Source of the DNA: Octopus sinensis
Taxonomy: Eukaryota
DNA length: 64,000 nucleotides
NCBI RefSeq assembly: GCF_006345805.1
Contig: NC_043007.1
Coordinates: 8,618,001-8,682,000, forward strand
Direction: 5' to 3'
Shown: piece after piece, positions 41,031-60,433 of the stretch
Position numbering within the stretch: position 1 is the first letter of the stretch
How the letters are laid out: every line of letters starts with the position of its first letter
Notes under the pieces: model-generated
What the model saw: the letters and a program-made list of their open reading frames with translations, nothing else
What the model was told of the DNA's origin: nothing
Databases searched by the model: none
Program-made: the position numbers and the translations under genes

Positions 41031-41500
41031 ACATTATTTACATTTGACGGATATTTGTCCTCATCTTGTTTGTTGTTAACACAATGTTTTGGCTGATATA
41101 CCCTCCAGCCTTCATCAGGTGTCTTGTGGAAATTGCAAACCTGGGTTCTCGTTCCTTAGGTATTTTCTGGGCATATGGTATAGTAGTTAAGAGCACGGGC
41201 TACTAACCCCAAGATTCCGAGTTCGATTCCAGGCAGTCACCTGAATAATAATGATAACAACAACAACAACAACAACAACAACAATAATAATAATAATAAT
41301 AATAATAATAATAATAATAATATCAAAAATAACTTGTGAATGAGAACCCAGGTTCGAATTTTCTCCAAAACACCTGATGAGGGCTGGTGGGTATATCAGC
41401 CAAAACATTGTGCTAACAACAAACAAGATGAGGACAAATATCCGTCAAATGTAAATAATGTAAATAATGTAAATAATTCCTCATCTTTTAAATATAGAAC
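41031..41500 (+). mobile_element. tRNA-head + (AAC/AAT)n + hammerhead composite element with upstream inverted partial copy
   Basis: Head 41169-41240 with B box GAGTTCGATTCC; CTGATGA at 41374; 41031-41166 is the reverse complement of the 3' half. Confidence 0.8.
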
Positions 41501-42359
41501 TGTACACATATATGTAGTTGGTTACCTAACGCTTTTTTTCACTTTCTTCATTATTCACAATCAATAGAATAATTACAAATGCTATAAACGAATTTTAATC
41601 ATGACTGCTATAAAGTAACAATACATGGAATTAATTCTTTCTCTTTCATGTTGATGCATCTATCTATCAGTCTCTCTCTCTATCTATCTATCTATCTCTC
41701 TCTCTCTCTCTCTCTATCTATCTATCTATCTATCTATCTATCTATGAATCTATTTATCAGTTTGTCTTCCTGTCTATCTATCTACTGACCTATCTACTTA
41801 CCTACCTACCTATCTACCTATCTACCTGTCTGTCTGTCTGCCTGTTTGTCCGTTCGTCCGCCTGCCTGTCCGCCTGTCCGTCCGTCTGTCTGTCTATCTA
41901 TCAACTTAATGAAAGACAACACTAAAATAATGGAAACACAAGATACAAAAGGTTAACAGTTGGCAACACATGCAAATAAACAAGCACATTAAACGTATAC
42001 ATTCCATCATCAGCTGCCGAACAAACGTCATTAGGATTTTGCTACCTGGGTATCTCTTTATATTATAAATTTTTTGTTTGAATTCTGTAGATATTAACGG
42101 ATTTCCACATGTATATCCAGTAAAAGGAGAATTCCTGCTGTATGATAGCCTATGGTTGCTGATACTCGTGGAGGAGGTTTGTGAAACATGCTGGGTGACT
42201 GTCTGTCTGTTTCTCTCTCTCTCTCTCTCTCTCTCTCTCTATATATATATATATATATATATGTATGTATGTATGTATACACACAAACACACACACACAC
42301 ACATATATATATATATATATATATAAGAGAGAGAGAGAGAGAGAGAAAAGATAAAAAAA

Positions 42360-44600
42360 AACAGAAGATTTGTATTACAGGATTAAGGTGTATATTAGAG
42401 TCGTAATAATAAAGTATACAATTTTGTACAAATACGGTTTTGTTCTTTCACATAATTAAAATAAGAACCGGTTTCGCATTGCTCATCAAACTAAGGTTTG
42501 AAAAATAGACATATTGCCAGTGGGAGGCATCAGTTCTTACTTTAATTATGTTGAAAGAACAAAACCGTATTTTGTACAAAATTGTATAATATCTTTAATA
42601 TTATGACTCTAATATACACCTTAATCCTGTAAAACAAATCTTCTGAGTTTTTTCATATATTCTATTTCTGTAAACATCCACCATGTGAGTTTCCACACTA
42701 AAATATTTTCTACCATATACATATATATATATATATAGAGAGAGAGAGATGCAGCACGGATTTTTGTTGTTAACACAATGTTTTGGCTGATATACCCTCC
42801 AGCCTTCATCAGGTGTCTTGTGGAAATTGCAAACCTGGGTTCTCGTTCCTTAGGTATTTTCTGGGCATATGGTATAGTAGTTAAGAGCACGGGCTACTAA
42901 CCCCAAGATTCCGAGTTCGATTCCAGGCAGTCACCTGAATAATAATGATAACAACAACAACAACAACAACAACAATAATAATAATAATAATAATAATAAT
43001 AATAATATCAAAAATAACTTGTGAATGAGAACCCAGGTTCGAATTTTCTCCAAAACACCTGATGAGGGCTGGTGGGTATATCAGCCAAAACATTGTGCTA
43101 ACAACAAACAAGATGAGGACAAATATCCGTCAAATGTAATAATGTAAATAATGTAAATAATTCCTCATCTTTTAAATATAGAACTGTACACATATATGTA
43201 GTTGGTTACCTAACGCTTTTTTTCACTTTCTTCATTATTCACAATCAATAGAATAATTACAAATGCTATAAACGAATTTTAATCATGACTGCTATAAAGT
43301 AACAATACATGGAATTAATTCTTTCTCTTTCATGTTGATGCATCTATCTATCAGTCTCTCTCTCTCTATCTATCTATCTATCTCTCTCTCCTCTCTCTCT
43401 CTATCTATCTATCTATCTATCTATCTATCTATCTATCTATCTATCTATCTATCTATCTCTCTCTCCTCTCTCTCTCTATCTATCTATCTATCTATCTATC
43501 TATCTATCTATCTATCTATCTATCTATCTATCTCTCTCTCTCTCTCCTCTCTCTCTCTCTCTCCTCTCTCTCTCTCTCCTCTCTCTCTCTCTCCTCTCTC
43601 TCTCTCTCTATATATATATATATAGAGAGAGAGAGAGAAAAGATAAAAAAAAACAGAAGATTGTATTACAGGATTAAGGTGTATATTAGAGTCGTAATAA
43701 TAAAGTTATACAATTTTGTACAAAATACGGTTTTGTTCTTTCAACATAATTAAAATAAGAACCGGTTTCGCATTGCTCATCAAACTAAGGTTTGAAAAAT
43801 AGACATATTGCCAGTGGGAAGGCATCAGTTCTTACTTTAATTATGTTGAAAGAACAAAACCGTATTTTGTACAAAATTGTATAATATCTTTAATATTATG
43901 ACTCTAATATACACCTTAATCCTGTAAAACAAATCTTCTGAGTTTTTTCATATATTCTATTTCTGTAAACATCCACCATGTGAGTTTCCACACTAAAATA
44001 TTTTCTACCATATACATATATATATATATATGTATGTATGTATGTATGTATACACACAAACACACACACACACACACACATATATATATATATATATATT
44101 ATATATATATATATATATCTATATATATATATATATATATATATATATATATATATATATATATATATATATATGTATGTATGTATGTATACACACAAAC
44201 ACACACACACACACACATATATATATATATATATATATATATATATAAGAGAGAGAGAGAGAGAGAGAGAGAGAGAGAGAGAGAGAGAGAGAAAAGATAA
44301 AAAAACAGAAGATTTGTATTACAGGATTAAGGTGTATATTAGAGTCGTAATAATAAAGTTATACAATTTTGTACAAAATACGGTTTTGTTCTTTCAACAT
44401 AATTAAAATAAGAACCGGTTTCGCATTGCTCATCAAACTAAGGTTTGAAAAATAGACATATTGCCAGTGGGAAGGCATCAGTTCTTACTTTAATTATGTT
44501 GAAAGAACAAAACCGTATTTTGTACAAAATTGTATAATATCTTTAATATTATGACTCTAATATACACCTTAATCCTGTAAAACAAATCTTCTGAGTTTTT
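42360..44600. repeat. Three copies of a ~290-bp foldback (42360-42650, 43650-43947, 44300-44600)
   Basis: cagaagatttgtattacaggattaagg...ccttaatcctgtaaaacaaatcttctg arms around a ~70-bp loop. Confidence 0.9.
42765..43186 (+). mobile_element. Duplicate of the composite tRNA/hammerhead element
   Basis: Near-identical to 41070-41500, including the downstream flank. Confidence 0.8.
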
Positions 44601-44710
44601 TCATATATTCTATTTCTGTAAACATCCACCATGTGAGTTTCCACACTAAAATATTTTCTACCATATACATATATATATATATATAGAGAGAGAGAGATGC
44701 AGCACGGATT

Positions 44711-58739: not shown

Positions 58740-59260
58740 AATTTTGGCGCAAGGCCAGCACTTTCGTGGGAGGGAGTATGTCGATTACATCGACCCCCCC
58801 CCCCGTGTTCAACAGGTGCCCTTTTTTTTATCGACCCACAAAATGATAAAAGGCAAAGTCAACGGAGTTTGAACTCGGAATGTGAAGACGGACGAAATAC
58901 CGCTGAGCATTTCCGGCGCGCTAACGATTCTGCCAGCTTTGATAACGTTTAATATTAAAAGATAGTAATGCGGTCAGCTGGCAGAAACGTTAGCACGCCG
59001 GGCGAAATGCGTAGCCGTATTTCGTCTGCCGTTACGTTCTGAGTTCAAACTCCGCCGAGGTTGACTTTGCCTTTCATCCATCCGGGGTCGATTAAATAAG
59101 TACCAGTTACGCACTGGGGTCGATATAATCGACTTAATCCGTGTGCCTGTCCTTCCTTGTCCTCTCTGTGTTTAGCCCCTTGTGAGTAGTAAAGAAATAG
59201 GTATTTATTCTGTCTTCGAAATCAGAACGTAAAGCGTACTAACGTTTCTGCCAGATCGCC
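58740..59260. mobile_element. Head-to-head Nin-like SINEs
   Basis: 58740-58940 on minus and 58969-59205 on plus; gctggcagaaacgttagc...gccgaggttgactttgcctttcatcc. Confidence 0.85.
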
Positions 59261-59293
59261 GCATTCTGTTCATTTAACATTATACGATAAAAT

Positions 59294-60433
59294 GGGCATG
59301 TGGCGTAGTTGTTAAGAGCGCGGGCTACTAACCCCAAGATTCCGAGTTCGATTCCAGGCAGTGATCTGAATAATAATAATAATAATAATAATAATAATAA
59401 TAATAATAATAATAGCATCAACATCGAAAAATACCTTATGAGAAACCCAGGTTCGAAATTTCCCTAAGACACCTGATGAAATGCTGGAGGGTATATCAGC
59501 CGAAACGTTGTGTTAAGATGAAGACAAATATCCGTCAAATGTAAATAATGTAAATAATGATACTATTTATTCTACATAGTTTGGTCAATTATTGTGTCGG
59601 CGTTGTATTTTTTCGTGTTTTAATTGTCCACTGCGATTTTGAGCATGTTCTGCCCGGTGTGTAACAGACACTGGTATGTTATGTGCGTCACTTGGAATAC
59701 GATAATCGTTGAATAACAGAGTAAAAAGCGATATACATTCTAAGTGTTTCTTGAAAGTAGAGCGCTAGCAAATAGATTTCGTATAATTATTAACCTATTT
59801 TTGCTGAGTAACGATTATTATTTCTTTGTAATTTGGTGATTATAACAAGGGAAAGAACTCATTAAAAAAAATTCTTTGCAGTTGTAAATTAAGTCTGTTC
59901 TGTTTGATTAAAAAACAAAAAATGTTTGTCAGGCGAGAAGAAACAGTTCATATGACCTCTGTTATCTCACGCTTACTGATAAGACTGGTGTGGGCGATGT
60001 CCAGTCAAAATATATTCAGGCTATCTGCCAGATATGCGCAAGTGGGAAGGGTTCCAATAATCGAACTAGAGTAAAACCTACTAAAAACAGTTAAGTACGA
60101 AGTTGGGGTATTTACCTGGGTGACATGCAAAGCCGACAGTTTGAATATAAAACGATTGACAGAGCAATACACTTCTGTAGCTTTTACTTTCTTCAGAACG
60201 ATGCATGAAAGAGATCTTTGAAAGGCTGCGATGCTGTTGCTATTGTTTACCGCCTGGTTAGTTCTGATCGAATAATGCTAAGGGTAAAGGCTTTCTAGAC
60301 GTGACCATCAGGTCACACACACACACACACAGTCAGCTGCTGTCACTTACGAGTTGGCTTGGTTACTGTATCGCAAGCAGGCTAGTCTCTCCATCGGCCG
60401 ATTTACTATTTAGACCCAGCGATGTATGCATGA
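59294..60433 (+). repeat. Direct segmental duplicate of 48200-48301 + 49611-50652, including a composite element with hammerhead at 59468-59514
   Basis: Near-identical over about 1.1 kb, lacking the Dong-like insertion. Confidence 0.95.

Follow-up and report, generated by a model that had tools for sequence, protein, structure and literature searches.

The 64,000-nt window analyzed here (Octopus sinensis, assembly GCF_006345805.1, contig NC_043007.1, positions 8,618,001 to 8,682,000; coordinates without a locus name are those of the window) contains several short copies of a composite repeat in which a tRNA-like head is followed by an (AAT)n tract and a tail with a hammerhead ribozyme motif. 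Our analysis indicates that short copies of this kind are, very probably, solo pseudo-long terminal repeats (pLTRs) of an autonomous Penelope-like element (PLE) with a unit of 2.7 kb. We also favor, if only mildly, the fuller reading in which the tRNA-derived head is the likely RNA polymerase III (Pol III) promoter of the whole element. The initial annotation described a non-coding element, either a short interspersed element (SINE) or a retrozyme, mobilized by a Penelope-like reverse transcriptase (RT). Mobilization by such an RT is supported, and the copies show PLE signatures, namely head-to-head arms, a pairing of one long with one short 3ʹ end, and target duplications. The rest of that description needs revision: the unit in its entirety, with its head, is the pLTR of an autonomous PLE and not a separate entity, and the tail is the in-frame N-terminus of the PLE protein, not the body of a non-coding SINE.

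The parent Penelope-like element

We traced the parent PLE from the upstream flanks of the copies, in an assembly of 2.72 Gb and 13,516 contigs. Seven copies run upstream of the head into a common sequence that encodes the end of an open reading frame (ORF) of GIY-YIG type. An autonomous GIY-YIG/RT element sharing the tail had been anticipated; the one we found shares the head as well. The order of the unit is ORF (RT, then the GIY-YIG-type end), stop codon, ~30 nt, head, (AAT)n, ATG, hammerhead within coding sequence, and the next ORF. Among 30 loci selected with the GIY region, the ORF end is directly followed by the head at 28 and goes straight on to the tail at the other two; among 30 selected with the ORF start, the tail lies immediately 5ʹ of the ORF body at 24 (four near-identical duplicates are among the 24). 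One locus, L195, is complete, with head, AAT tract, tail, ORF and head in a 2.7-kb unit, and the partial-tandem structure that forms pLTRs is seen in L195, L182 and L181. Other GIY-YIG elements found in a genome family search, with 20 loci extended, belong to other PLE families, and none of them shares the tail.

The ORF is clearly related to PLE proteins. It is 36% identical to the Anolis PLE protein P0034 over 553 aa (E 3e-105), an open piece of 551 aa shares 68% identity with P0004, and the listed members of its 266 homologues show PLE-type Pfam sets. When P0034 was searched against the genome, all 30 of the 30 best loci belonged to this family. A GIY-YIG-type motif is seen by inspection at the ORF's C-terminus. 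Judged from its sequence, the single ORF with a PLE-type RT and, C-terminally, a GIY-YIG-type end places the family among endonuclease-bearing (EN+) PLEs. A quick tree, with a weak backbone and no curated clade references, puts it as sister to P0002/P0004/P0007 and then P0005/P0006 (SH-aLRT 100). Speaking against the EN+ PLE assignment, a Pfam scan of three decayed ORF pieces returned neither RT nor GIY-YIG; searches of PDB sequences gave no match. The family is old in this genome, with ~5% non-CpG divergence, and no intact full ORF was seen among the copies examined. Other PLE families here (L061–L064) look much younger than the tRNA-headed one; they have open frames of 775–883 aa at several loci, with runs of four or five T residues (T4, T5) present. 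One of these frames is overlapped by an upstream frame of 479 aa.

The hammerhead within the start of the ORF

The ATG in the tail lies 5ʹ of the hammerhead. Of 11 junction copies, seven have it in frame with the ORF, three have indels, and one is apparently open but was missed by the pattern. The product of the tail is 42% identical to the PLE protein P0005 over 92 aa (E 3e-19), and the window's own 41340–41504 matches the same protein at 35% over 48 aa (E 7e-4). The hammerhead-bearing tail is hence the first ~55 codons of the next PLE ORF, homologous to an independent PLE protein.

Minimal hammerheads, recognized by motif, lie at 41369–41414, 43054–43099, 49683–49729 and 59468–59514. The motif has an unpaired base before stem II and a direct C15.2-G16.2, which fits the minimal pLTR hammerhead of EN+ PLEs. 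The core had been called intact at 49683–49729 and 59468–59514; its letters are indeed kept there, but the first stem II pair (G10.1-C11.1) is lost. The change from GAAA to AAAA reported for the other two copies is part of a set of two G-to-A changes in the core region, both at CpG sites. Core letters are retained in 55 of 96 arms (we refer to each head-to-tail piece as an arm). Rfam hammerhead scans of the element gave no match. The available text of PMC4209133 describes the minimal hammerhead type for PLEs and reports no in vitro cleavage for such monomers, with a minimal helix III. Self-cleavage plays no part in shaping the copies that were inserted, since their 3ʹ ends avoid the cut site: with that site at position 90, the closest 3ʹ ends among 151 arms are one at 84 and one at 94, with no pile-up. 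Gaps in the hammerhead region affect ~10–25% of ORF-linked arms per column and ~2% of solo arms, a difference in which selection bias is possible.

Copy number and the ends of the copies

Exact 29-mers from the head have 856 occurrences in the genome and those from the tail 3349, with 0 for reversed controls, so that these matches are not due to chance. Allowing for divergence, we estimate that there are on the order of 10^4 arms genome-wide. The linkage of head and hammerhead seen in the window holds across the genome, with a forward tail at 27 of 30 head-selected loci (two of the 30 are window copies). Two of the remaining loci have an inverted tail upstream only, and one has a long interspersed element (LINE) in the AAT tract.

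The 3ʹ ends were determined for the 151 arms, a set not selected by tail. They are bimodal, falling at 135–164 in 74 arms and at 176–192 in 54. Inverted arms are common, with one within ~330 nt of 36 of 61 head matches. Head-to-head pairings combine a long and a short end in 62 of 67 cases and two short ends in five, and never two long ends (two loci were counted twice). Each such pair represents one insertion, since the flanks of 28 of 43 pairings have words of at least 8 nt in common, compared with 25 of 838 shuffled pairings. This pattern is the "tail at one end" of PLE copies, as described in the available text of PMC8557442.

The 5ʹ ends were determined for 61 of the 62 exact head matches on a single contig. 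Forty-two of them stop ≤8 nt upstream of the head, 12 at position −7; three extend 14–25 nt, six enter the ORF, and 10 are cut inside the first 11 nt. Hence, among arms that reach the head, 42 of 51 begin ≤8 nt from it, with the mode at −7. In similarity-ranked sets, 55 of 59 stop ≤17 nt upstream and 15 of 59 lie at −7, as against 11 of 2000 random positions.

Two loci deserve mention in their own right. At L127:1580–1620, a piece of the PLE ORF start stands directly before a head, an arrangement that is likely a template switch during insertion. At L244:1012, RNA reads (66–127 per run) cross a head-to-head joint; inverted pairs are thus present in host transcripts, where they would form double-stranded RNA.

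The tRNA-derived head and the choice of polymerase

The head had been described as tRNA-like with A and B boxes, and this is borne out. Window heads match a sequence-only tRNA model, built from 12 tRNAs of the same genome and searched in 169 kb, at E 3e-4 to 4e-3. Both boxes are canonical and in exact tRNA register, and tRNA numbering, read from the sequence, is preserved at T8, A14, G15, T33, G53-T54-T55-C56-G57-A58 and C61. The best single match among 27 local tRNAs, which represent six isotypes only and leave the donor unsettled, is tRNA-Arg(TCT), with Thr next. There is no cloverleaf in the heads: ARAGORN was blank, also at lowered thresholds, and Rfam scans gave no tRNA match. Both head and hammerhead are too reduced for the models behind these blanks. 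Three other heads in the window fit the tRNA model better, at 2685–2750 (+), 52807–52873 (−) and 35468–35524 (−), and are probably ordinary SINEs.

Which polymerase transcribes the element? Pre-tRNAs carry a leader, with a 5ʹ boundary expected 6–7 nt upstream of the first tRNA base. The boundary of our copies lies 6–7 nt upstream of the tRNA-equivalent first base, and we count this fit in favor of Pol III. Read-through of the ORF by Pol III is suggested by a sense strand without T4 terminators. Over the 2.7-kb unit, 143 pieces contain 42 T4 runs where 250 are expected, and every T4 site is confined to at most 16% of the covering pieces (one end position with a single piece aside). Real tRNA genes in this genome have a run of at least four T residues ≤35 nt downstream in 22 of 27 cases. 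T4 density is 1.5–4.3/kb in four other PLE ORFs of this genome, and its median is 3.4/kb in 23 PLE families from outside. In five related PLEs with a visible pLTR (L285, L286, L287, L289 and L293), TATA-type motifs are seen, by eye, at the place of the head. A tRNA-like head near L293 is that of a neighboring SINE followed by T5, and is not in the L293 pLTR.

Several observations weigh against transcription by Pol III. Runs of four G residues are depleted too (45 compared with 129 in the same 143 pieces), which weakens the argument from absent T4. Markov nulls on six natural copies give P values of 0.02–0.44 for T4, and a pooled comparison of 8 with 71 is pseudo-replicated ~22-fold. ORF T4 density is ≤0.64/kb in 5 of the 23 control families. 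Among these low-T4 controls, L336 has longer T runs in its pLTR, L300 has no visible pLTR, L290 has a pLTR of the same type as that of L297, where T5 occurs, L288 itself has box-like motifs, and L289 is of TATA type with one T4. Hence, the lack of T4 is what Pol III transcription requires, but it discriminates only modestly, given the low T4 of controls, the depletion of G runs and the per-copy nulls. Where both arms contain the head, a palindrome across the point at which it begins could draw junctions to −7. RNA reads, from three raw runs and one contig set at 85% similarity, show no strand bias; their coverage tracks the depth profile of the DNA, and no start site is visible at the head. 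This outcome is uninformative, being evidence neither for nor against Pol III. Finally, the translation of an uncapped Pol III RNA has no explanation in this model.

The strongest competing explanation keeps the same PLE and the same solo-pLTR origin, but has RNA polymerase II (Pol II) start from a TATA-like motif, TTTATAAG, at the ORF stop, with the head as a passenger. The head would then descend from a small tRNA-SINE, ending in (AAT)n, whose insertion had hit the 5ʹ untranslated part of the pLTR. The motif lies 27–28 nt upstream of the 5ʹ-end mode, which also suits Pol II; by itself, it is as compatible with a Pol II gene as with a TATA-assisted Pol III gene. The PLE promoters on record are of Pol II type, at least in the available text on D. 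virilis Penelope (initiator and downstream promoter element; PMC2377424) and on the A. vaga PLE (a putative TATA and initiator promoter; PMC3846280). Moreover, head and (AAT)n together resemble a small SINE, and low T4 also occurs in TATA-type PLEs. However, the TATA-like motif is non-canonical and overlaps the last codon and stop of the ORF, and there is no CCAAT/initiator set of the kind seen in relatives. Nor was a free donor SINE found: the PLE tail is near the head at 29 of the 30 head-selected loci, and the last has the LINE in its AAT tract. The canonical boxes in exact tRNA register and the 2.7 kb without a shared T4 also count against this explanation. We therefore consider transcription by Pol II from this motif unlikely, while regarding it as a serious contender.

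Pol III initiation at the head, as suggested by the boxes and the 5ʹ ends, is a little better than an even bet. The stronger proposal, that the whole coding unit would be transcribed end to end by Pol III from a captured tRNA promoter, with an ORF purged of terminators, is a possibility that we put somewhat short of even.

Solo pLTRs or an independent SINE lineage

Are the short copies a lineage of their own? In a true PLE-dependent SINE, solo pLTRs would keep their Pol III promoter, be re-transcribed and be re-mobilized in trans. Solo arms do keep both boxes, and solo arms outnumber ORF-linked ones by ~7:1 among full heads (45 compared with 6). Solo tails are also less diverged at non-CpG positions (0.028–0.034, as against 0.054 for ORF-linked tails, a comparison in which selection bias is possible), and this keeps the SINE explanation alive. 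However, 76 solo and 49 ORF-linked arms have no diagnostic substitutions between them and differ only by CpG decay and gaps; we therefore read the short copies as solo pLTRs and not as a separate SINE lineage. Studies of an anole PLE provide a further argument. According to the available text of Frangieh et al. 2024 (PMC11167929), both strands are cut in vitro and RT starts at two sites within the ORF start; RNA to +172 is needed, ~55 nt past the RT start sites, and hammerhead cleavage is not. Our solo copies end at RT start sites, without the ~55 nt beyond them that the anole PLE RNA needed, and internal RT initiation alone yields an excess of solo copies. An independent SINE lineage is thus improbable.

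A retrozyme, in which tandem units self-cleave at the hammerhead, circularize and reinsert, is very unlikely: it would fit the minimal type I hammerhead, one head-to-tail dimer (L004, among the first 30 loci) and the proposal, in the available text of bioRxiv 10.64898/2026.07.22.740005, that animal retrozymes are PLE derivatives, but 3ʹ ends do not pile up at the cut site, 5ʹ ends pile up at the head, the copies occur scattered as monomers or in inverted pairs with no tandem arrays met, and monomers with so minimal a helix III were uncleaved in vitro (PMC4209133).

We propose the following model for the tRNA-headed PLE. Transcription would start ~6–7 nt upstream of the head and run through the ORF. 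The PLE protein would nick both strands of AT-rich DNA, and RT would start inside the RNA at two sites near the ORF start, as it does in vitro for the anole PLE. Copying from the RT start to the 5ʹ end of the RNA would yield ~270–310-nt pieces with head, AAT tract and hammerhead, two of which would often be fused head to head, one arm ending long and the other short, inside a single target duplication. The rarer ORF-bearing copies may arise when RT initiates in the second unit of a tandem transcript. The hammerhead would stay uncleaved in the copied RNA, and the SINE-like copies would be by-products, most of them dead ends.

Copies in the window

Four forward copies had been placed in the window, with heads at 41169, 42863, ~48200 and 59294, and inverted partial arms upstream of three of them. 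These positions are sound; the first base of the 48.2k head differs, and the inverted arms run at 41031–41166, 42763–42860 and ~47752–47861. The suspicion that the copies amount to two independent insertions was also correct, as local duplications account for the pairs.

Insertion A (41031–41503) consists of an inverted and a forward arm. The inverted arm (41031–41166, − strand) is a 5ʹ-truncated pLTR with a short 3ʹ end. The forward arm (+ strand) comprises the tRNA-derived head with A box, B box and a short linker (41169–41243; tRNA-model match E 0.004), the (AAT)n/(AAC)n tract that forms the 5ʹ untranslated region of the PLE ORF (41244–41322), and the ORF start (41340–41504), which has its ATG at 41340 and 55 open codons and contains the hammerhead and the 9-nt repeats. 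The hammerhead (41369–41414, +) is a minimal type I motif decayed by two CpG-type G-to-A changes. The element had been thought to end in the short 9-nt repeats; the repeats are there, but the long form ends ~35 nt further on, at 41503 (+). A target-site duplication was looked for around insertion A and none was found. A local duplication, in which 41069–41839 matches 42763–43529, has produced a second copy (42763–43187, +), with an inverted arm at 42763–42860, a head at 42863 and a hammerhead at 43054–43099.

Insertion B (47754–49774) is bracketed by 10-bp target-site duplications, read from the sequence at 47744–47753 (+) and 49775–49784. Its inverted arm, with a long 3ʹ end, occupies 47754–47861 (−). 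A junction filler of three segments follows (47862–48198): AT-rich DNA of no assigned origin (47862–48099), an inverted copy of the downstream flank 50151–50228 (48100–48176), and the first 25 nt of the head, inverted (48174–48198). The forward arm (+) begins with the head and the initial AAT tract (48200–48301; tRNA-model E 6.5e-4) and resumes at 49611–49774 with further AAT, the ORF start, the hammerhead at 49683–49729 and a short 3ʹ end. The 48.2k head and the 49.6k tail thus belong to a single copy, separated by a 1.3-kb LINE fragment within the AAT tract. This fragment (48302–49610, +) is an unrelated, 5ʹ-truncated LINE with a C-terminal zinc-knuckle/restriction-like endonuclease region and a 3ʹ untranslated region. 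It has a zf-RVT match at E 2e-5, which is below the cut-off, and the proteins homologous to it are RTs that reach ~1200 aa; we take it to be of R4/Dong type, presumably with a (TAA)n target. LINE fragments split head from tail in the (AAT)n tract of this family at L021, L026, L027, L030, L115, L123 and L135 as well. Dong-R4 is given as the most numerous recently active LINE group of O. vulgaris in the available text of PMC13282606.

The forward arm of insertion B is duplicated, without the LINE, at 59294–59559 (+), with the head at 59294–59368 (tRNA-model E 3e-4), AAT at 59369–59414 and the hammerhead at 59468–59514; 48201–48301 and 49611–50652 match 59295–60435. The duplicate carries ~880 bp of the 3ʹ flank of insertion B, reaching 60435. 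We considered a Pol III 3ʹ transduction for this copy and rejected it, because the copied flank holds a T6 run ~50 nt past the tail.

Other repeats and related loci

An inverted duplication (50683–51194 and 61196–61740) lies near the end of the 49.6k/59.4k duplication, with long arrays of (TCCA)n and (GGAT)n on its flanks (60519–61198 and 61735–63990). Two long inverted repeat pairs, 3429–5056/8577–10204 (94% identical) and 15817–16323/17422–17929 (99%), are possibly the ends of DNA transposons or miniature inverted-repeat transposable elements. A second, abundant SINE-like repeat at 58900–59290 and about 20 other places, which we take to resemble CORE SINEs, showed no match to the tRNA-headed unit. 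Identity of the unit with the octopus repeat OR2 was rejected, as OR2 has been classed as a CORE SINE (PMC4758252).

L288, from a metagenome contig, is an intact tandem PLE with a unit of 2791 bp and copies that are 100% identical (2000–2250 and 4790–5064). It has A-box-like and B-box-like motifs (by eye), an AAT-rich linker ~90 nt before the hammerhead and two T4 runs per unit; a TATA-like motif is also present. It sits on a long branch and is not close to the tRNA-headed family. L288 may be a second, independent case of a tRNA-headed PLE, although its head was not matched by the tRNA model or by Rfam.

Comparison with known elements and significance

The family resembles Penelope/Poseidon PLEs, such as D. 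virilis Penelope and PAc of Anolis, in its single ORF with RT and, C-terminally, a GIY-YIG-type domain, its partial-tandem pLTR-ORF-pLTR structure, a minimal hammerhead overlapping the ORF start, the inverted 5ʹ arm, a 30–40-nt tail confined to one of the ends, a pair of internal RT start sites and copy ends that do not reflect hammerhead cleavage. In contrast to Penelope, which has a Pol II-type internal promoter and an intron, the pLTR here has a tRNA-derived head with A and B boxes and (AAT)n. It also differs from Penelope/Poseidon elements in that the ATG is upstream of the entire hammerhead and the sense strand is without a shared T4.

Sm-alpha and Sj-alpha of Schistosoma are likewise ~300-nt retroposons in which a Pol III-type promoter precedes a type I hammerhead, as described in the available text of PMC6765202 and PMC8490949. 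Sm-alpha is described there as non-coding and often tandem, with an active hammerhead, and no autonomous parent is named in those portions of the two papers. The present unit is instead a pLTR that belongs to a coding PLE, its minimal hammerhead lies within the ORF, and copies form inverted pairs. Animal non-LTR retrozymes are short hammerhead-bearing units related to PLE pLTRs (available text of PMC7229834 and of a preprint by Li et al. 2026), and have been proposed to be PLE derivatives (PMC7761336, PMC7229834; 10.64898/2026.07.22.740005). Our family does not form tandem arrays, the ends of its copies are determined by where the RNA and RT start and not by cleavage, a tRNA head is present, and the parent PLE is at ~95% identity. 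With tRNA-derived SINEs, the copies share the A/B-box tRNA head, the lack of a cloverleaf, thousands of dispersed copies and target duplications. Unlike in those SINEs, the 3ʹ part is PLE coding sequence and not a LINE 3ʹ tail, there are two alternative 3ʹ ends and inverted pairs, and the head is also in the autonomous partner.

The tRNA-derived pLTR head is what sets the family apart among endonuclease-bearing PLEs. In the literature passages that our searches covered, no PLE has a pLTR headed by a tRNA-derived sequence; Repbase, Dfam, SINEBase, subscription journals and the supplements of the Li et al. preprint were not covered and may hold an annotated consensus. The O. vulgaris annotation has 190 PLE families, and no tRNA-headed PLE is named in the available parts of its text and supplement (PMC13282606), its repeat library being outside the comparison.

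What would a PLE transcribed by Pol III mean? To our knowledge, autonomous retrotransposons are transcribed by Pol II, or by Pol I together with rRNA, whereas Pol III serves the non-coding SINEs. This division would no longer hold if a PLE were confirmed to use a tRNA promoter. Cap-independent translation of PLE RNA and the role of the hammerhead would become directly testable. Solo pLTRs would be ready-made SINEs, a direct route by which a SINE could be born from its own partner, and this may be the origin of elements of the Sm-alpha type. The pairings of arm ends, long with short in 62 of 67 and never long with long, supply genomic counts for the two-start-site model of PLE insertion. Even without Pol III, the family shows that sequences resembling tRNA-SINEs are, in thousands of cases in this genome, solo pLTRs of a PLE, a point of importance for the annotation of repeats.

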